Part shown: positions 7,963 through 16,670 of the stretch, piece by piece
Position numbering within the stretch: the stretch's first letter is position 1
Layout: every line of letters starts with the position of its first letter
Source: Bacilli bacterium
GTDB taxonomy: Bacteria > Bacillota_I > Bacilli_A > RF39 > UBA660
Direction of reading: 5' to 3'
Assembly: GCA_035387905.1 (NCBI GenBank)
Contig: DAOOOU010000001.1
Location: 1-26,439 of the forward strand
Length of the DNA: 26,439 bases
Position numbers and translations under genes: made by a program
Notes under the pieces: model-generated
What the model saw: the letters and a program-made list of their open reading frames with translations, nothing else
The model's database searches: none
Told to the model about the DNA's origin: nothing

Positions 7963-9045
7963 CTAAATCATTTTAATTAAAATTTCATTCATTATATATA
8001 AGCGTTCTGGATTAATAAAAATATTACCGTTTTTATAGATTAAATCTTTGCTTTTAAGCAGTGGCTTGATGGGAAAAACCTCTTGCATATTAAGTTCGAA
8101 TTTATCAAAAAAGGCTTTCAGATTAATTCCTTCGCTTTTACGTAGGCCAAGTAATAATTCGTTTTCCATAATCGTTGCTTTACTTAACATTTCTTCTTTT
8201 AAAACATACTTACCTTGGAAATAATCAGTTAAACTTCGCGTGTTTTCGTATCTTACCCCAAAAGTATAACCATGAGCCCCCACCCCAAAGCCATAGTATT
8301 CTAAATTATGCCAATAATTTAAATTATGTTTTGCAGCATAGCCTTTTTTAGCAAAATTACTTACTTCATAATGAAGATATTTTTTTGTTGCTAATTTACG
8401 ACAGATCGTATCATACATCTGGCGGTCTAAATCTTCGCTAATCGGATTAACACAAGCTATGCCAATTTTGGTATTATCTTCGACAATAAGGGAATAAGTA
8501 CTAATATGTTCCGGTTTTAGTTTTAGAAATAAACGTAAATCTTTTTTTAAATCCTTTATTGTTTCACCAGGAATACCATAAATTAAATCAAGATTAATAT
8601 TATTAAAATGATATTGGCGAACAAGAGCAAGCTTTTCACTAACATCTTTAAAAGTATGATTACGTTCCATAAACGCTAATTTTTTACTGTTAAATGATTG
8701 AACCCCAATACTTAAGCGATTAACAGGGTAATTACTTAAAAGTTTTAATAAATTTTCCGTTAAATCATTAACATTACATTCAAAAGTAAACTCAACCTGA
8801 TCAGCTAGTTTTAGCTTGCCAATAATATCAAATAAGTATTTTAAGTCTTTTTCACTTAAAGCACTTGGTGTGCCGCCACCAATATAGATTGTTTTAATTA
8901 GCTCATCATGATACTTATCCTTAATCTCATTTACTAAAGCATTTAGATACTTTGTCACCCAAGGGCCATGCATTAATACTTTACAAAAATCACAATAAGA
9001 ACAGATATTTTGACAAAAAGGAATGTGAATATAAACACTTTCCAT
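7963..9045 (-). CDS. hemW: Radical SAM heme chaperone HemW (HemN-like)
   Basis: YIHIPFCQNICSYCDF (CxxxCxxC), IYIGGGTPS, RLSIGVQSF, YEVSNF and the HNLNYW signature typical of HemW rather than true HemN. Follows lepA as in many Bacillota. Alternative GTG start at 9054. Confidence 0.9.
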   Translation of the reverse strand: MESVYIHIPFCQNICSYCDFCKVLMHGPWVTKYLNALVNEIKDKYHDELIKTIYIGGGTPSALSEKDLKYLFDIIGKLKLADQVEFTFECNVNDLTENLLKLLSNYPVNRLSIGVQSFNSKKLAFMERNHTFKDVSEKLALVRQYHFNNINLDLIYGIPGETIKDLKKDLRLFLKLKPEHISTYSLIVEDNTKIGIACVNPISEDLDRQMYDTICRKLATKKYLHYEVSNFAKKGYAAKHNLNYWHNLEYYGFGVGAHGYTFGVRYENTRSLTDYFQGKYVLKEEMLSKATIMENELLLGLRKSEGINLKAFFDKFELNMQEVFPIKPLLKSKDLIYKNGNIFINPERLYIMNEILIKMI

Positions 9046-9060
9046 AACTTTCACCCTTCT

Positions 9061-10854
9061 TTAGTCTTTCTTTTTTAATACTGCTAAAAAAGCTTCCTGA
9101 GGAACTTCTACACTGCCGACCATCTTCATTCTTTTTTTACCAGCTTTTTGTTTTTCTAGCAACTTCCGTTTACGTGAGACATCGCCGCCATAGCATTTAG
9201 CTAAAACGTTTTTGCGCATCGCACTAATATTCTCCCGAGCAATTACTTTACTACCAACCATGGCTTGAATTGGTACTTGAAACATTTGCCGCGGAATAAT
9301 CGTTCTTAGATTTTCGACAATATCTTTACCTCGTTGATAAGCAAAATTTTTATGGACAATTAAACTTAAGGCATCCACCGTTTCACCATTAATGAGAATA
9401 TCCATTTTAACTAAACTACTTGGTAAGTAACCGCTCATTTCATAATCTAATGAAGCATAACCTTTGGTAGTACTCTTTAGAGTATCAAAAAAGTCATAAA
9501 CAACTTCTGATAAAGGTATATGATAATGAATATTAACTCGCGTTTGGTCTAAATAATCCATGGTCTTAAAGTTACCTCGTTTATTTTGACATAATTCCAT
9601 AATTGGTCCAATGTATTCTGCAGGGACAATTATACTAGTTAAAATATAGGGTTCTCTAATCTCTAAAATAGTTCCTCGATCGGGCATTTTATGAGGCGAA
9701 TCAATAGTAATTACTTCATGATTAGTTAATTCGATTTCATAAATAACACTAGGACTTGTGGCAATTATATCAAGATTAAACTCACGTTCAATCCGACTCA
9801 TAATAATTTCCATATGAAGGAGTCCCAAAAAGCCACATCTAAAACCAAAGCCTAAAGCTTCTGAAGATTCTGGTTCATAAGCTAAAGCCGCATCATTTAA
9901 TTTCAGTTTTTCTAAGGCATCTCTTAATGCCACAAACCGATTTGGTTCAACCGGAAATAAACCGGAATAAACCATTGGTTTCATTTTCTGATAACCCGGT
10001 AAACTTACTTGGGCTGGATTATTCACACTAATAATTGTGTCACCAACATTTACTTTACTAATATCTTTAATACTGGCACATAACCAGCCAACTTCACCGC
10101 AAACTAATTCGTTTTTCTTAACTTCTTTGGGCGTATTAACTCCTAACTCAACAATTTCATATTCTTTATTGGCCATCATCATTTTAATTCGCTCTTTAGC
10201 ATGAAAAACGCCATCAACTACTCTAATTAAGGCAACTACCCCACGGTAGGGGTCAAAAAAGCTATCAAAAATTAAAGCCCGTGGCGGATTATTATTTATT
10301 TGGGGACCAGGTATTCGTTCAATAACTGCTGCTAAAAGTTCTGGTACCCCTTCCCCAGTTTTGCCACTACATAAAATTATTTCTTCTTTTTTAAATCCTA
10401 AAACACTAACTAGTTCGTTAGTTACTCGCGTAATATTAGCGTTTGGTAAATCAATTTTATTGATCACCGGAATTATTGTTAAATTGTTCTTCATTGCTAA
10501 AAATAAATTAGCTAAAGTCTGGGCTTCAATCCCTTGAGCGGCATCAACTACGAGTATTGCTCCTTCACAAGCGGCTAAACTACGGCTCACTTCATACGAA
10601 AAATCGACATGGCCAGGGGTATCAATTAATTGTAAAATATATTCTTGATTTTGATAATTATATTTTAACTGCACAGCATTTAATTTAATTGTTATCCCAC
10701 GTTCACGTTCTAAATCCATATTATCAAGTAGCTGCTCTTTCATATCACGATCAGCAACCCCACCGGTAATTTCTAAGATGCGATCTGCAAGAGTACTTTT
10801 ACCATGGTCAATATGAGCAATTATCGAAAAATTACGAATGTTTTTCTGCTCCAT
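9061..10854 (-). CDS. lepA: Elongation factor 4 (LepA)
   Basis: 597 aa. [82 protein letters not shown]. Confidence 0.99.
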
Positions 10855-10910: not shown

Positions 10911-10935
10911 AAAATGAAAAACAAGCTTTCGCTTG
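10911..10935 (-). terminator. Intrinsic terminator after the ABC exporter gene
   Basis: Minus strand CAAGC-GAAA-GCTTG (GNRA tetraloop) followed by TTTTTCATTTT. Confidence 0.75.
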
Positions 10936-10947
10936 CTTTCATGAATT

Positions 10948-12672
10948 TTAAATTTCTGAGTTATAGAGTTTTTGATAAATATCCGATTGTTTTAATAATT
11001 CTTGATGAGTACCTTTAATTACCGCTTGACCTTGATCAATAATAATTATTTCATCTGCATCTTGAATTGTTGATAAACGATGAGCCACAATAATTATTGT
11101 GTGATCAACTACTAAGTTATCAATTGTTCGTTTAATATACTCTTGAGATTCATTATCAAGGGCACTGGTGGCTTCATCAAAGAGAATTACCTTAGTATCT
11201 TTAAGTAAAGTACGAGCAATAGCTAATCTTTGCTTTTGCCCACCTGATAAATTAATCCCTCCCTCACCAATAATTGTCTCATATTGATCCGGTAAAGACT
11301 CAATATAATCAGCAATATATGCTTTTTGACAAAGAGTTTTAATTTCTTCAAGGGTAACATCAGCTTTAATTAAGGTAAAGTTTTCTCTAATTGATTTATT
11401 AAATAAATACGGATTTTGGCGAATAACAGAAATGTTTTTTCTTAATTCGGTTTCGGATAATTGAGCAATATTCTTACCATCAATGGTAATCTTACCTGCT
11501 ATCGGATCAAAGTATCTTAATAGTAAATTAAAGATTGTTGATTTACCCATCCCACTACGGCCGATAACCGCAATTTTTTTATTAGGTTCAATCTTCATCT
11601 GTAAATTATCAAGAATTAAGTTTTCGGTTGTATTATATCTAAAAGAAACCCCTTTAAATTCAATAATCCCTTGGGGATTAACTAATTTATTACGGCCGAA
11701 ACGCTCGTCAGGATAAAGAACATTGCTAGTTAGTTCATCAATCCTTTTTAAAGAAACAGTCATTTTTTGATAACTTACTCCAAACTCCGAAAATGATTCA
11801 ATAGCATCACTAATACGCCACATATACATTTCCATCATTAAGAATAGATCAAAAGCAATCTTGCCTTTAAAAAATAGATAACCACAAGTAAATAATAAAC
11901 CCCATTCGAGACAAATATAAGTGATATTTAAAGCATAATTATAAATTAATTCGGTTTTGCGAATAACTTTTTGTTCATGGTATAAGTTATCAATATTCTG
12001 CCCAATTAAGGTCATAATATTGTGCTTGATACCCAAGGCTTTAATCTCTCTAATACCATTTAAGGTTTGTGAAGTAATTTTTACATATTCATCACCACGT
12101 TTTTTAATGTTTTCTTGGGTCTCTTTAATTTTGGGATAAAAAACATTAGATAATAAATATATCGCCCCACTAAATATTACTAGTTCTATGGTTATTACAT
12201 AGGATACTTTTAAGGAAATAACGATAATTATTATGACCATGATTAATCTTGAAGCCAGTTTAATTAACCGGCTGAATAAGTCCATAATCCGATCCGGATC
12301 AGAATATATCCGATTTGTTAATTCGCCGACACTAAGGTCTTCAAATGCTTTAGTTGGTAAATTAAGAACTTTAGCAAATAAATCTTTACTAACATTATTC
12401 ATAAACTTTAACTCTAAATAATTATGATAAACATCTTTGGGAATAGTTAAGATATTATTATAAATAATAGCTGTACCATCCCAAGCCGTTAAAAATATCA
12501 AAAATGTTAACCATTCTTTATGAACGAGAGCATCAATAGCTTGTGACCATAAATACGGGTATAACAATGATTGAAAAGTAATGAAAAAAGTTAAAAAGAT
12601 ATAAATCGTTAGTTTAATTTTATCATTCTTAAAATACCGTCCTAAGACTTTAAAATATTTTAAGTTTTTCAT
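10948..12672 (-). CDS. ABC exporter half-transporter (TMD plus NBD; multidrug/peptide-efflux type)
   Basis: 574 aa. N-terminal multi-TM domain, Walker A GRSGMGKST, Q-loop, signature LSGGQKQR, Walker B ILFDEATSALD, H-loop IVAHRLST. RBS AAAGGAAG. Confidence 0.95.
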   Translation of the reverse strand: MKNLKYFKVLGRYFKNDKIKLTIYIFLTFFITFQSLLYPYLWSQAIDALVHKEWLTFLIFLTAWDGTAIIYNNILTIPKDVYHNYLELKFMNNVSKDLFAKVLNLPTKAFEDLSVGELTNRIYSDPDRIMDLFSRLIKLASRLIMVIIIIVISLKVSYVITIELVIFSGAIYLLSNVFYPKIKETQENIKKRGDEYVKITSQTLNGIREIKALGIKHNIMTLIGQNIDNLYHEQKVIRKTELIYNYALNITYICLEWGLLFTCGYLFFKGKIAFDLFLMMEMYMWRISDAIESFSEFGVSYQKMTVSLKRIDELTSNVLYPDERFGRNKLVNPQGIIEFKGVSFRYNTTENLILDNLQMKIEPNKKIAVIGRSGMGKSTIFNLLLRYFDPIAGKITIDGKNIAQLSETELRKNISVIRQNPYLFNKSIRENFTLIKADVTLEEIKTLCQKAYIADYIESLPDQYETIIGEGGINLSGGQKQRLAIARTLLKDTKVILFDEATSALDNESQEYIKRTIDNLVVDHTIIIVAHRLSTIQDADEIIIIDQGQAVIKGTHQELLKQSDIYQKLYNSEI

Positions 12673-12689
12673 ATGGTTCTTCCTTTCAT

Positions 12690-12717
12690 AAAAAATAGTT
12701 ACTAAACAGTAGCTATT
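12690..12717 (-). terminator. Attenuator terminator in the 5' leader of the ABC exporter
   Basis: Minus strand AATAGCTACT-GTTT-AGTAACTATT-TTTT: 10-bp stem with one C/A mismatch plus a U tract, ending about 18 nt before the ABC start codon. Confidence 0.75.
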
Positions 12718-12748
12718 CTATATGAAAAAAACCTTAATCGTTAACGAT

Positions 12749-12817
12749 CTAAAGACTCGTGGGCAAAGACCCACAATAGCTACTATTTATCTTTTGTTGT
12801 TGAATTTGTTTAATCAT
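12749..12817 (-). CDS. Putative leader (attenuator) peptide, 22 aa: MIKQIQQQKINSSYCGSLPTSL
   Basis: Strong RBS GAGGAG 7 nt before ATG 12817; reads ATG ATT AAA CAA ATT CAA CAA CAA AAG ATA AAT AGT AGC TAT TGT GGG TCT TTG CCC ACG AGT CTT TAG. Lies between a promoter and a terminator. Too short for the ORF track. Confidence 0.7.
   Translation of the reverse strand: MIKQIQQQKINSSYCGSLPTSL
12775..12788 (-). promoter_or_regulatory. Antiterminator strand inside the leader ORF
   Basis: AAAUAGUAGCUAUU (12788-12775) pairs over 14 nt (13 Watson-Crick plus 1 G.U) with AAUAGCUACUGUUU (12717-12704), the 5' arm and loop of the terminator. Confidence 0.75.
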
Positions 12818-12848
12818 TTTCCCACTCCTCTCTTTAAAATTCCCCTTC

Positions 12849-12877
12849 AGTTTAAATGATTTTACTTATTTTGTCAA
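12849..12877 (-). promoter_or_regulatory. Sigma-A promoter for the leader plus ABC exporter
   Basis: TTGACA (12877-12872), 17 nt, TAAACT (12854-12849). Confidence 0.8.
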
Positions 12878-12883
12878 TCTTTT

Positions 12884-14752
12884 TTAAAAACCCCGGCCAC
12901 CGCCGCCACCGCCGCCAAAGCCGCCACCGCCGCTAAAGCCGCCACCAAAACCACCACTTGTTGTTTGGACAGAGTTAGCATTTGCTGCGGAAATTGCTTG
13001 ATGAACTGCGGTATTAACACTACTACTCAAAGCATTACTCATATGCAAATAATATATAGGCATAAAATCGGTTTGGGCAGTATTCTCATTTATTTCGTTA
13101 AATCTCGTGTTCATCACCTTTTGGACTTTTCCCGCTAAACCAAAGATAACAGCATATACTAAATATCTTTCCCAAAGAATTATTTCTGGTAATTCTTTAG
13201 TATCAAAAAGGCCAAAATCATTTAAGAATCTTTTAAAAGCTAACCACTTTTGATAGTGATCATTTCCTTTAGGGGTTCTTTTGGTAAAAACAATTGTATA
13301 AATAATAAAAGGTACCACTAAAATAATTAATAACTTTGCATAAGCAAAACCAGTAATATTAGCGATTGCTGCTAACCAAATGAATAAGCCAACAAAAGCC
13401 ATGATAAAAGCATAAACTTTTACTTTTAACATTCCTTCAAAAAAACCTTGAGCTTTTGCTTCAACAACGACCTTATGGCGCCAATTACTATAACTAGTAG
13501 TAAATTCATTATAAGTTACCTTTGATTTACCGTAAGCCTTTAAACCGCTTAAGGTAAATTGCTCTTTATTACCTACTTTATTAAAAAGAAAATCAATCAG
13601 ATATTTTTCTGTATCATTTGTCTGATTATCATTTTGGTAAGTAAACTCATAATTCTTTTTTGGTAATTCTTTAACCGTAATATTCTTTTTATATATTAAA
13701 TTCATGATTGAAGCACTTAAGGCATTAGGCGTAATTCTTTTATTCATTAAATAGTCAATAACTTCAACATTATAATCTTCAATAAACTGGCGATTATATT
13801 TAGCTTTAAAAGAGTTTGGATATTCCTTATCATAGCGTTGGCGAATAACAATAAAACTCATTATTAAAAGAATCGTATATCCTAAAGCACTATATTCAAT
13901 ACCATAAAATATTTCTTTGATTCTTGCTCGTTCTTCATTGGCCAGTGCTGCTTGCTCATCCCCATAAGCAATTATCGCTTTAAAAGCATTTTGCTCAGAA
14001 CGTCTTAACGTTTTTTGATCAGTAATTAAACCTAAAGCAAAAGTTGTTCTTAAAGATAATGGTGTATTCATGGCTAAAGGACTAATTTGGGCTCTAAAAC
14101 CAATTTTATCAATAAAAGTTGCTGTCCCATTTAATGGCCCAAAAGCCCAAATTCGAAAATAATTACTTTGATCACTTTGCGGTAACAGAACTCTGATTTC
14201 AACATTAGCTATATCATCATCAAGATTTTGGCCAACAATGTTGTAATAAAATTCGGCGACATCATTATGAATTACTACAACATTATCAATATAATATTCA
14301 TAATAAAATACTTGCGTTTGATTATTCATTGCACTATAAGTTCGCAGACGATAACCATCAGTGATATCAGCAATGGTATAGTAAGCATTATTATTCTGCT
14401 TAGTCGGTAATAAATAGGTAATGTCTTTTTGTAAAAGATCAAAATTGGCTGCCGTATTTAAGATATAAGCACTAGCTTTAATATCATAAATATTAGTGGC
14501 ATTATAGATGGCGCTATTGGCAAAATCGATTTTTCCGGGTTGATAATTACTTAAAAGACTGTTTTTATATAACAAATCACGCTCATAACCATTTAATGAA
14601 CCATTAATGACAAAAGCTTCTTTAACAAAGACGTCGCCATTAGCTTGAATTTGATAATTAGCAAAATAATTAGTAATTTTATAATCAACTTCCACCGCTT
14701 TAACTACTGGGATAAACAAAAAGCAACTAAGCAAGATAAGTATTTTTTTCAT
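12884..14752 (-). CDS. DUF2207-family membrane protein
   Basis: 622 aa. Signal peptide, extracellular domain ('EFYYNIVG', 'RIWAFGPLNG'), TM helices, 'WLAFKRFL', 'WERYLVYAVIFG' and Gly-rich tail GGFGGGFSGGGGFGGGGGGGRGF. Adjacent to lemA, a common pairing. Confidence 0.88.
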   Translation of the reverse strand: MKKILILLSCFLFIPVVKAVEVDYKITNYFANYQIQANGDVFVKEAFVINGSLNGYERDLLYKNSLLSNYQPGKIDFANSAIYNATNIYDIKASAYILNTAANFDLLQKDITYLLPTKQNNNAYYTIADITDGYRLRTYSAMNNQTQVFYYEYYIDNVVVIHNDVAEFYYNIVGQNLDDDIANVEIRVLLPQSDQSNYFRIWAFGPLNGTATFIDKIGFRAQISPLAMNTPLSLRTTFALGLITDQKTLRRSEQNAFKAIIAYGDEQAALANEERARIKEIFYGIEYSALGYTILLIMSFIVIRQRYDKEYPNSFKAKYNRQFIEDYNVEVIDYLMNKRITPNALSASIMNLIYKKNITVKELPKKNYEFTYQNDNQTNDTEKYLIDFLFNKVGNKEQFTLSGLKAYGKSKVTYNEFTTSYSNWRHKVVVEAKAQGFFEGMLKVKVYAFIMAFVGLFIWLAAIANITGFAYAKLLIILVVPFIIYTIVFTKRTPKGNDHYQKWLAFKRFLNDFGLFDTKELPEIILWERYLVYAVIFGLAGKVQKVMNTRFNEINENTAQTDFMPIYYLHMSNALSSSVNTAVHQAISAANANSVQTTSGGFGGGFSGGGGFGGGGGGGRGF

Positions 14753-14824: not shown

Positions 14825-15388
14825 CTAAAATTGAACTTTAATATTTTCGCGCTCGGTATTTGCAACTTCAAAGAAAGTTGCTTTTTCGAAACGGAAAATA
14901 CTAGCGATGAGATTACTGGGAAACATTTCTACTTTGTTATTATATTGTAATACCCCATCATTATAGAATTGACGGGCAAAAGATATTTTATCTTCAGTAT
15001 CTTTTAAATCGCCTTGCATTTGCATAAAATTAGTATTGGCTTTCAAATCCGGGTAACTTTCAGCCAAAGCAAACAATTTAGAAATTACATTTGTCAACTC
15101 ACTATTAGCTTTCATCTCTGCTTCGGGAGTCTTAGCTGCGGTAAAACTATTGCGAGCTTCAACAACTGCGGCAAAAGTCTCACTTTCATGCTTAGCATAA
15201 CCTTTAACTGTTTCTAATAAATTAGGAATTAAATCAAATCTTCTTTTCAATTGTACATCGATTTGGGCCCATTGATCCTTTACTTTATTTCTTAGTGATA
15301 CAAGCGCATTATAATTAACAACAATAAAACCACCAATAATAAGTAATAACCCACCACCAATAATAATTATGATTAACCATCCTGGCAT
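14825..15388 (-). CDS. lemA: LemA family protein
   Basis: 187 aa. N-terminal TM helix, 'YNALVSLRN', 'WAQIDVQLKRRFDLIPNL', 'AESYPDLKAN', 'RQFYNDGV..YN', 'FPSNLIA'. RBS AGGAGGT. Confidence 0.96.
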   Translation of the reverse strand: MPGWLIIIIIGGGLLLIIGGFIVVNYNALVSLRNKVKDQWAQIDVQLKRRFDLIPNLLETVKGYAKHESETFAAVVEARNSFTAAKTPEAEMKANSELTNVISKLFALAESYPDLKANTNFMQMQGDLKDTEDKISFARQFYNDGVLQYNNKVEMFPSNLIASIFRFEKATFFEVANTERENIKVQF

Positions 15389-15442: not shown

Positions 15443-15461
15443 TAAGCGTTTATTTAATTAA
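15427..15461 (-). terminator. AT-rich hairpin at the end of the FemAB-family gene (possible terminator)
   Basis: TTAATTAGATAAAC / GTTTATTTAATTAA form a 14-bp inverted repeat with one mismatch. Overlaps the femAB stop codon and the lemA -35. Confidence 0.4.
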
Positions 15462-16670
15462 GCTTTTTATTTTCTTTAATAAATTATATATTTTATATAA
15501 AGGATGAAACCCAATTTCAAAGGAACCAAGCAGTTCTTCAACATAGCCCCCAAAACCCTTTTTAAAGTCATAAACACCATAGTCTTTACCTTTTTTATCA
15601 AATACATCTTTAATACCATAAAAGTTATAACGACGATAATTATGGGCTAAGGCATACTGAATGATATCCCATTGCAAAGCATATTGTCCGCAAAAACTCA
15701 TATATGCTTCATAACTACCACTAAATAAATAGACAACTTCATCGCCATAAAGCATAAACATAGCTCCAGCCAAGACAATAATTGGCCCTTGGGCTTTTTT
15801 TAATTGTTCAATTTGACTGATTTTTTGTTGATTATTAATTATTTCTTGGCGCATGTTTTCTTTTTTATGTTGATTAGATGCTGAGTCGGATAACGCTTCT
15901 AGTTTTTGCTTAAAATTATTATTTTCGTTAATTAAGACTTCTAAGTATTGATTACAATCTAATTCACATACTTTATAAACCACATCATCTTTAAAAGCAC
16001 GGTACATTAATTGATAATATTTTAGTGATTTATCACCAAAAGACCTTCGTTCGCAAGTTTCCGTAGTAATTTTTTTGAACTGATCTAATTCTTCATATTT
16101 TAAGGTCCTAATCTTTAATTGATACTTTGTCATGGTGCGATTAATATAATTTCTTGTACTAGGTCGCATCTCATTTAGTAACTGTTCCTTAGTTTTACCC
16201 GCTAAATCTAAACAATAAACCCATTTAACTTGGCTTGTTTCACCGATATAATTATAACCAAGCTTTGCTAATTTAGCATATAAGTGGTGGTTATTGATAC
16301 CATCAATAATATTAGCTTCAGTATCTCTTGAGATGCTTGGCAGATAAGGATCAATTATTAATTTATAACCCCCCTTAGCTTTTAAAAATAAAATGATTTG
16401 TTGGGTAAAATAAGTTAATAACTCATCATTTTCATAATCAATTAGAAAACCCTTATATGCTTCGAAGGCTTTTTTTCCTAAAAAAGTACCACTACAAGCA
16501 ACTAAACTAGCAGCAACTAATTTATTATTTTCTTCTACCCCTAACAAATACACTTCAACAGCACTATCTTTCATTCTTTGATACATCATTGGCGTTTGAA
16601 AAAAATTCTTTTGCGCAGAATCTTGACCAAACTTTTTAAATTCAAGACAACTTATTTCTCTAAAATTCAT
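15450..16670 (-). CDS. FemAB/FemX/MurM-family aminoacyl-tRNA-dependent peptidoglycan interpeptide-bridge ligase
   Basis: 406 aa. 'NFFQT', 'GFLIDYEN', 'LIIDPY', central coiled coil, 'VVYLFSGS', 'LQWDIIQYA', 'YNFYGI', 'GVYDFKKGFGG...E..G.F'. Confidence 0.92.
   Translation of the reverse strand: MNFREISCLEFKKFGQDSAQKNFFQTPMMYQRMKDSAVEVYLLGVEENNKLVAASLVACSGTFLGKKAFEAYKGFLIDYENDELLTYFTQQIILFLKAKGGYKLIIDPYLPSISRDTEANIIDGINNHHLYAKLAKLGYNYIGETSQVKWVYCLDLAGKTKEQLLNEMRPSTRNYINRTMTKYQLKIRTLKYEELDQFKKITTETCERRSFGDKSLKYYQLMYRAFKDDVVYKVCELDCNQYLEVLINENNNFKQKLEALSDSASNQHKKENMRQEIINNQQKISQIEQLKKAQGPIIVLAGAMFMLYGDEVVYLFSGSYEAYMSFCGQYALQWDIIQYALAHNYRRYNFYGIKDVFDKKGKDYGVYDFKKGFGGYVEELLGSFEIGFHPLYKIYNLLKKIKSLIK

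Follow-up and report, generated by a model that had tools for sequence, protein, structure and literature searches.

Attenuation of transcription by a ribosome that translates a leader peptide is a textbook kind of switch. Here, we describe a leader that, judged from comparative sequence analysis, is very probably a ribosome-dependent attenuator of this known kind, with an unusual architecture and in a family uncatalogued so far. It precedes the gene for an ATP-binding cassette (ABC) exporter in a 26,439-nt stretch of DNA (the window: positions 1 to 26,439 of contig DAOOOU010000001.1, GenBank assembly GCA_035387905.1) from a Bacilli bacterium (GTDB lineage Bacillota_I; Bacilli_A; RF39; UBA660). 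Its leader open reading frame (ORF) contains strands of three of its four helices: an antiterminator, a helix S1:S2 that closes the ribosome-binding site (RBS) of the leader ORF itself, and a decoy hairpin that competes for S2; the fourth is the terminator.

The closest described system in logic is the leader of vmlR in Bacillus subtilis, which is induced by arrest of a ribosome at initiation on the upstream ORF (uORF; Takada et al. 2022, PMC9226507). The order of elements is shared, i.e., promoter, uORF with a Shine-Dalgarno sequence (SD), anti-antiterminator at the start of the uORF, antiterminator with an apex hairpin, terminator and gene, and the thermodynamic model presented below predicts the same logic. 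However, the vmlR uORF has three codons, whereas those described here have 19–41 and reach from the antiterminator strand through the decoy to the anti-RBS strand. Unlike in vmlR, the anti-antiterminator pairs the uORF's own SD-AUG region with the 3′ end of the uORF, and the leaders carry a decoy copy of the RBS spacer; only 11 of 53 have the TTNTTT pause motif. Moreover, vmlR encodes an ABC-F ribosome-protection factor, while the gene at hand encodes a membrane ABC exporter. A cmscan against Rfam gave no sign of vmlR- or lmo0919-type homology, although it was not established that Rfam holds a vmlR model.

In terms of the gene controlled, bmrB-bmrCD of B. subtilis is closest: slowed translation of the leader ORF favours the antiterminator, and lost translation raises termination (Reilman et al. 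2014, PMC4191407). There too, an attenuator precedes an ABCB-type exporter, the leader ORF has tens of codons, and the peptide is not the signal; termination in the absence of translation matches the termination predicted for naked RNA in our family. The bmrB terminator lies inside the 53-codon ORF, whereas here it is found 0–35 nt past the stop codon in most leaders; bmrCD is a heterodimer pair, here there is a single half-transporter gene, and the leaders are not homologous. In the tlrB (yxjB) leader, also of B. subtilis, the completed RNA structure would block translation of the leader, which leaves a time window for initiation (Yakhnin et al. 2019, PMC6851288). Leader peptide and terminator are again present, and S1:S2 would set the same time constraint in our leaders; tlrB, however, needs the C-terminal arrest motif RYR plus tylosin and sequesters the SD of the gene, while we found no conserved motif and no support for conserved sequestration of the exporter RBS.

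The leader and its alternative helices

The leader occupies a 211-nt gap, read on the minus strand, between the gene for a DUF2207 membrane protein (12884-14752) and the ABC exporter gene (10948-12672). The elements of the transcription unit are:

12849-12877, minus strand: sigma-A-type promoter (-35 TTGACA, 12877-12872; 17-nt spacer; -10 TAAACT, 12854-12849)
12815-12842, minus strand: conserved mRNA 5′ end GAAUUUUAAAG and translation initiation region of the leader, strand S1 (SD GAGGAG, 12830-12825; GUGGG, 12825-12821; AUG, 12817-12815)
12749-12817, minus strand: leader ORF, ATG start, 22 codons plus stop, product MIKQIQQQKINSSYCGSLPTSL
12775-12788, minus strand: antiterminator strand A, AAAUAGUAGCUAUU, leader codons 10-15; partner, the terminator 5′ arm plus loop
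12759-12774, minus strand: decoy hairpin inside the ORF (S1′ GUGGG, 12774-12770; S2 CCCAC, 12763-12759)
12725-12754, minus strand: hairpin H3 across the leader stop codon (12754-12732), then seven U (U7, 12731-12725)
12690-12717, minus strand: intrinsic terminator (5′ arm T5, 12717-12708; loop, 12707-12704; 3′ arm T3, 12703-12694; U tail to 12690)
12672-12686, minus strand: exporter RBS AAAGGAAG (12686-12679) and start codon (12674-12672)
10948-12672, minus strand: half-size ABC exporter, 574 amino acids, transmembrane domain plus ATPase (Pfam ABC_membrane and ABC_tran)
10917-10940, minus strand: terminator closing the transcription unit (terminator scan)

The promoter, the SD, the 22-codon ORF, the terminator hairpin and the exporter RBS lie where an initial annotation, made from the sequence of the window alone, had placed them. 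Transcription is predicted to start around 12843-12841 on the minus strand. The terminator hairpin (AAUAGCUACU / GUUU / AGUAACUAUU) begins 31 nt past the leader stop codon, and a simple terminator scan did not list it (12717-12690). The complementarity between strand A and T5 plus loop, also as given in the initial annotation, extends over 14 nt with one G-U pair; the duplex is worth -16.5 kcal/mol, as against -6.2 ± 1.8 kcal/mol in 3000 dinucleotide shuffles of the ORF, none of which reaches it. It is indeed better than the mismatched stem of the terminator (nine pairs, one C-A mismatch), which is worth -4.0 kcal/mol.

The S1:S2 helix, the decoy hairpin and hairpin H3 were missed in that first reading; in the folds of most relatives, S1:S2 and the decoy bring the untranslated leader into the terminator state. 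The decoy hairpin GUGGG/CCCAC is worth -7.8 kcal/mol, and the same CCCAC of S2 is also complementary to the GUGGG in the spacer between leader SD and AUG (12825-12821): S1′ is a copy of the leader's own RBS spacer. In the window, S1:S2 consists of only 5 + 3 pairs (-11.5 kcal/mol). The whole leader of the window folds better than its own shuffles (z = -2.9). Hairpin H3 is worth -3.5 kcal/mol; it may form the apex of the antiterminated fold, or else act as a weak early terminator or site of pausing some 35 nt before the main terminator. A hairpin with a U run like H3 is visible by eye in several relatives (L004, L007, L002).

Conservation across relatives

An ortholog of the exporter (40–73% identity) occurs in 108 of the 401 genomes sampled from the host family, and the upstream DNA of about 105 of the 108 was compared. 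The same layout was recognised by eye in five of the first seven complete orthologous loci. A covariance model (R1), built from a MAFFT alignment of 36 leaders, matches a leader at 50 ortholog loci, from about 50 species and about 38 genera (by genus labels), has exactly one match in the window's own genome, and finds no leader before any of the paralogous ABC loci examined, nor, with stricter filters, in 93 genomes from 23 other families of the class. We also scanned all species genomes with a degenerate pattern: the matches listed are mostly due to chance and unusable for counting, but among them, 20 of the 80 loci rescanned with the model are real leaders, and all 19 of these model-confirmed matches that have downstream DNA precede the same exporter ortholog. 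Because the leader was found only before orthologs of this exporter, leader and exporter form one evolutionary unit. A cmscan of the region against Rfam (E ≤ 10) returned chance-level matches to unrelated families, none near the gathering score; the suspicion of a new family voiced in the initial annotation was thus well placed, and by this comparison the leader family is uncatalogued so far.

The evidence for the helices comes from two kinds of comparison. In the first, the duplex energy of each strand with its own (cognate) partner was compared by permutation with its energies with the partners of other leaders. S1:S2 duplexes are worth -15.0 kcal/mol when cognate versus -10.8 kcal/mol when non-cognate (0 of 5000 permutations); the strand A region of the leader ORF with T5, -9.3 versus -5.9 kcal/mol in 44 leaders (0 of 5000); the S1′ region with S2, -7.4 versus -5.7 kcal/mol (0 of 3000). 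Four control pairs (5′ end with the region past S2, region upstream of T5 with the exporter RBS, leader RBS with terminator, and early codons with T5) showed no cognate difference.

In the second, base pairs were counted on a MAFFT alignment that had not been fitted to any structure. For S1:S2, 82% of the alignment cells are paired, with two-sided changes at 6 of 11 pairs (e.g., AU in 15 and GC in 11 leaders at one position); for T5:T3, the numbers are 87% and 9 of 10. Together, these two helices have 84% standard pairs, and both partners vary at 15 of 21 pairs, which was equalled in 0 of 500 shuffles, a type of test that kinship among the sequences inflates; in shifted-register controls, 43–56% are paired. 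A:T5 (71% of cells) and S1′:S2 (68%) reach 70% jointly, with two-sided changes at 17 of 18 pairs, against 37–52% in the corresponding shift controls. The drop in the register-shift controls argues for a real covariation signal, as do explicit compensated examples: GCAGGAU/AUCCUGC in L056, AAGGAAAAUG/CAUUUUCCUU in L089 and GAGUGUUA/UAACACUC in L077. From the alignments, all four helices (antiterminator, terminator, S1:S2 and decoy) are thus seen to change together, each with its own partner. The initial annotation had claimed a leader-peptide attenuator of the exporter in which antiterminator and terminator folds exclude each other, and had foreseen compensatory changes in both helices and a conserved uORF upstream of homologous exporters; the pairing does covary across some 44 leaders, and both the compensatory changes and the uORF are seen in the orthologous leaders.

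S1:S2 is longer in the relatives than in the window, with 9–19 bp worth -14 to -21 kcal/mol that cover SD and AUG (14 bp in L065), and a U-rich stretch past S2 pairs with the purine-rich SD region. Membership in the S1:S2 helix explains this stretch better than a pause motif does: a NusG-type TTNTTT motif after the decoy hairpin was considered and rejected, as it occurs in only 11 of 53 leaders and is absent in the window. A hairpin with a U run stands at the place of the terminator in 44 of the 54 candidate leaders screened (-4 to -16 kcal/mol), 0–35 nt past the leader stop in most. Strand A lies at nt ~30–58 of the ORF in these 44 leaders (leader codons ~10–19). Sequestration of the exporter RBS by U7, which the minimum free energy (MFE) fold of the window suggests, was likewise discarded as a conserved feature: it is not cognate-specific across 43 leaders.

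The promoter is conserved as well: 49 of 52 related leaders have a near-consensus -35 (mostly TTGACA) and a -10 at a constant ~30–34 nt before the leader ATG; the spacer is 17 nt (18 nt in three) and an extended TG is present in 42. It is a strong and probably constitutive promoter. The family consensus of the 5′ end and initiation region reads GAATTTAAAG, then AGGAGTG(A/G)GAA, then ATG. The predicted first ~10 nt of the mRNA, GAAUUU(U)AAAG (12832-12842, minus strand), ranks with the most strongly conserved parts of the leader. For this block (GAAUUUAAAG), no partner with cognate-specific pairing was found within the leader; pairing with the region past S2, as an extension of the closing helix, was dropped for lack of any cognate signal.

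An ATG ORF of 19–41 codons (median 28) runs through A, S1′ and S2 in all 53 leaders annotated, while the other two frames from the same start are open that far in 0 and 1 of them, respectively; an ORF of at least 19 codons was a criterion of the first leader screen, and all 50 covariance-model matches with a complete 5′ end carry the ORF. The conserved uORF anticipated in the initial annotation is hence a general feature. Its ATG follows GGAG by 7–10 nt in all 53 leaders, and its stop codon lies 0–14 nt past S2 in most. The encoded peptides, on the other hand, are unlike one another even within a genus (MIKQIQQQK... in L001 versus MSRFMREKV... in L002, with exporters 73% identical), and the S2 segment is read in all three frames (in 23, 18 and 12 leaders). 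As the ORF is open in 53 of 53 leaders and the peptide variable, selection acts on translation through the leader rather than on the sequence of the peptide. Among the leader peptides, we found no conserved nascent-peptide arrest motif of the ermC, tlrB or msrD type. We propose that the leader ORF would be well translated.

Some relatives depart from the common layout. In L077, L098, L113, L120, L170, L043 and L046, promoter, uORF, S1:S2 helix and decoy are kept, and neither A nor a terminator is recognisable. L123 (genome G333), before an exporter ortholog of 41% identity, has a divergent leader that the covariance model missed; there, one strand, UCAUGGGAUUUA, is both the partner of the leader SD-AUG region and the antiterminator strand, i.e., a simple four-segment design of the type 1:2 / 2:3 / 3:4.

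Predicted switching and its alternatives

To follow the effect of a translating ribosome, 44 leaders, each taken as far as the last base of the terminator stem, were folded while a stretch of 28–32 nt was held unpaired for every possible codon in the ribosomal P site; these are equilibrium calculations that allow nested structures. Naked RNA has a terminator probability of ~0.9 in most leaders, and S1:S2 is then formed (mean 0.81). When codons 1–5 occupy the P site, terminator probability falls near 0 in roughly half of the 44 leaders; a ribosome at the start gives an MFE fold with a three-way junction, where A:T5 closes off both the S1′:S2 hairpin and the stop-codon hairpin. A ribosome over A brings the terminator probability to ~0.9, and one over S2, at the end of the ORF, often restores the antiterminator. 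At the stage when T5 has been made and T3 has not, T5 is paired to the leader ORF in 41 of 44 leaders with a ribosome at the start, compared with 19 of 44 in naked RNA.

The copy in the window behaves differently in the model: the terminator forms only with the P site at codons 7–17, and read-through prevails otherwise, because S1:S2 is short there, A:T5 is the strongest of the set and the terminator is the weakest. This suggests that the window copy, as modelled, is leaky or derepressed. L002, of the same genus, is canonical, with a terminator probability of 0.91 for naked RNA and of ~0–0.1 with a ribosome on codons 1–2. The initial annotation had predicted that no initiation, or a very early stall, switches the exporter on, and that occupancy of codons ~8–19 favours termination; for the window copy, this logic agrees with the model, but "no initiation = ON" fails for the family as a whole.

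The sequence of events that we envisage is as follows. The promoter would start an mRNA whose first ~150 nt carry the leader ORF (22 codons in the window). A normally moving ribosome would cover A while T5 and T3 are being made, and transcription would stop. If the ribosome is delayed or stalls at the start codon or within the first five codons or so, A would be left free and the exporter switched on: once A:T5 has formed, T5:T3 cannot form, and RNA polymerase would therefore read into the exporter gene. S2 could pair either with S1, in the long helix of the terminator fold, or with S1′, in the local hairpin that tops the antiterminated fold. A ribosome sitting on S1 would keep this strand from S2 and favour the read-through fold; a leader with no ribosome on it would close its own RBS by means of S1:S2 and end in termination. 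The decoy S1′ would occupy S2 just after its synthesis and thereby keep S1 accessible to the first ribosome. By analogy with the described systems, the signal is likely to be impaired initiation or early elongation, for example, by ribosome-targeting antibiotics.

We hold it to be highly probable that the locus is a ribosome-dependent transcription attenuator; as to the specific logic by which early arrest switches the exporter on, the chances appear evenly balanced to us. Attenuator and early-arrest logic, taken jointly, are the likely explanation of the locus. A more elaborate version, which we advance tentatively and think doubtful in its details, takes S1, S1′ and S2 for a sensor of ribosome occupancy with the initiating ribosome as its "ligand", a kinetic timer able to distinguish arrest of a ribosome at initiation both from the absence of a ribosome and from a moving one. 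The decoy would hold S2 briefly and leave the RBS open for one pioneer ribosome; were this ribosome held at the start, the decoy would persist and stack under A:T5, giving read-through; were there no ribosome, S1 would displace the decoy, the leader would close and transcription would terminate. Such a timer would work without an arrest peptide, and might be retained alone in relatives that have lost the terminator.

Two metatranscriptome libraries from activated sludge bear on the transcription unit. Each yields one contig, from 10956 or 10968 to 12822, starting ~20 nt downstream of the predicted start and ending just inside the 3′ end of the exporter gene; as assembled contigs, they carry neither local depth nor strand. 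The metatranscriptome contigs give zero coverage over the 12884-13300 part of the upstream DUF2207 gene, which DNA libraries do cover. This fits the promoter at 12877-12849 and a monocistronic unit ending at 10940-10917, with transcripts passing the attenuator. DNA carry-over may in principle be the source of these contigs, although their sharp boundaries argue against it.

Several points weigh against the attenuator as we have drawn it. The window terminator is weak and its antiterminator very strong, so that by the model the copy may be leaky, and its naked RNA sits in the read-through fold at equilibrium. Several relatives (L069, L096, L126 and others) never leave the terminator fold in the model. 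Termination at the hairpin is a prediction from its structure and U run. S1:S2 and A:T5 cross, and could coexist as a pseudoknot, their exclusion coming from a model of nested structures; overlap of strands makes exclusion physically certain in L123, where A equals S2, and in L066, L072, L079 and L065, where A overlaps S1′. The retention of S1, S1′ and S2 in some seven terminator-less relatives means that this module seems to have a termination-independent role as well. Finally, searches of NCBIfam and PDB give no specific substrate name for the exporter.

The main rival places control chiefly after transcription: S1, S1′, S2 and the ORF would form a 5′ stabiliser or a self-closing RBS that sets mRNA half-life or downstream translation, with little termination. 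The same ~7 relatives that keep S1, S1′, S2 and the ORF without a terminator would suit such a role, as would the position of S1:S2 within ~15 nt of the predicted 5′ end, the weakness of the window terminator and the read-through RNA in the two metatranscriptomes. However, A:T5 and T5:T3 covary in 44 leaders, which is expected only if the choice between terminator and antiterminator matters, and the pairing of the region upstream of T5 with the exporter RBS is not cognate-specific, leaving conserved RBS sequestration unsupported. We consider post-transcriptional control improbable as the principal mode.

A translation-independent RNA switch (a riboswitch or the target of an RNA-binding protein) to which the ORF is incidental is less probable again. 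The conserved blocks ACUACUAU / AUAGUAGU and the 5′ GAAUUUAAAG, together with conserved pairing, would befit such an element, and the case for translation of the leader ORF rests on sequence comparison. Yet openness of the ORF in 53 of 53 leaders, against 0–1 of 53 for the other frames, behind a near-consensus SD with ATG at fixed spacing, is hard to reconcile with an incidental ORF; there is no Rfam match, and the conserved parts are helices and RBS, with no conserved unpaired core that could serve as a ligand pocket.

A short ORF directly upstream of an ABC exporter could also encode a peptide that the transporter exports or senses, such as a bacteriocin or signal peptide. This is very unlikely, given that the peptide is not conserved, S2 being read in three frames (23/18/12), that the exporter has neither a C39 peptidase nor an accessory domain, and that the peptides have no leader or double-glycine motif. 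Still less credit is due to an amino-acid-sensing attenuator of the trp/his type for glutamine or Gln-tRNA: the window leader does have CAA (Gln) at codons 4, 6, 7 and 8, directly before strand A, but this run is confined to the window copy (every other leader of the family lacks it, most having 0–2 scattered Gln, and no other codon is repeated there), and the regulated gene is an exporter instead of a biosynthetic operon. Finally, that the inverted repeats are DNA operators for a repressor is scarcely credible: the terminator arms form a palindrome that is conserved in sequence, and the leader holds a third half-site, but the sites lie ~60–150 bp downstream of the promoter and a U run always comes after them, no neighbouring gene encodes a regulator, and the three-way compensatory changes maintain RNA pairing inclusive of G-U pairs, which carry no meaning in DNA.

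The regulated gene, its setting and significance

Only ABC_membrane and ABC_tran exceed the curated Pfam cut-offs in the exporter, and a peptidase domain is absent. Its best relatives in PDB are ABCB1-type exporters and MsbA, and it reaches no NCBIfam equivalog cut-off. By sequence, it is an ABCB/MsbA-like half-transporter encoded by a single gene.

The genome assembly of the window comprises 0.62 Mb, is 72% complete and has 31% GC. Its relatives are labelled at NCBI as "MAG: Bacilli bacterium", Clostridium sp. CAG:914 or Candidatus Coprovivens (Bacilli incertae sedis), and the DNA runs in which the window stretch occurs were obtained from activated sludge, wastewater, bioreactors and digesters, and in one case from freshwater. 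Upstream on the minus strand, a FemAB-family gene (15450-16670) precedes a LemA gene (14825-15388) and the DUF2207 gene (12884-14752), whose protein has a Gly-rich C-terminal tail. At the GGC-rich sequence that encodes this glycine tail (12896-12933), numerous short contigs of unrelated organisms pile up in the DNA runs, each loose at its two ends; this is a mapping artefact, and there is no junction. Downstream, also on the minus strand, follow lepA (9061-10854) and a hemW/HemN-like radical SAM gene (7963-9054), such that leader and exporter sit directly upstream of a conserved lepA-hemW block.

Should the link to antibiotics fail, an ordinary attenuator would remain. The leader adds an as yet uncatalogued family of cis-regulatory RNA, with four covarying helices and a conserved uORF, from a large group of uncultured small-genome Bacilli of gut and wastewater. 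To our knowledge, almost nothing is known about gene regulation in these bacteria. The design is unusual in that the leader uses its own RBS as a switch strand and carries a decoy copy of it, with no conserved peptide; nature would thus offer a compact case of how arrest at initiation or early elongation can be sensed. It marks an otherwise anonymous ABC exporter as a gene that would be switched by the state of translation, and, as such, a candidate inducible efflux gene.

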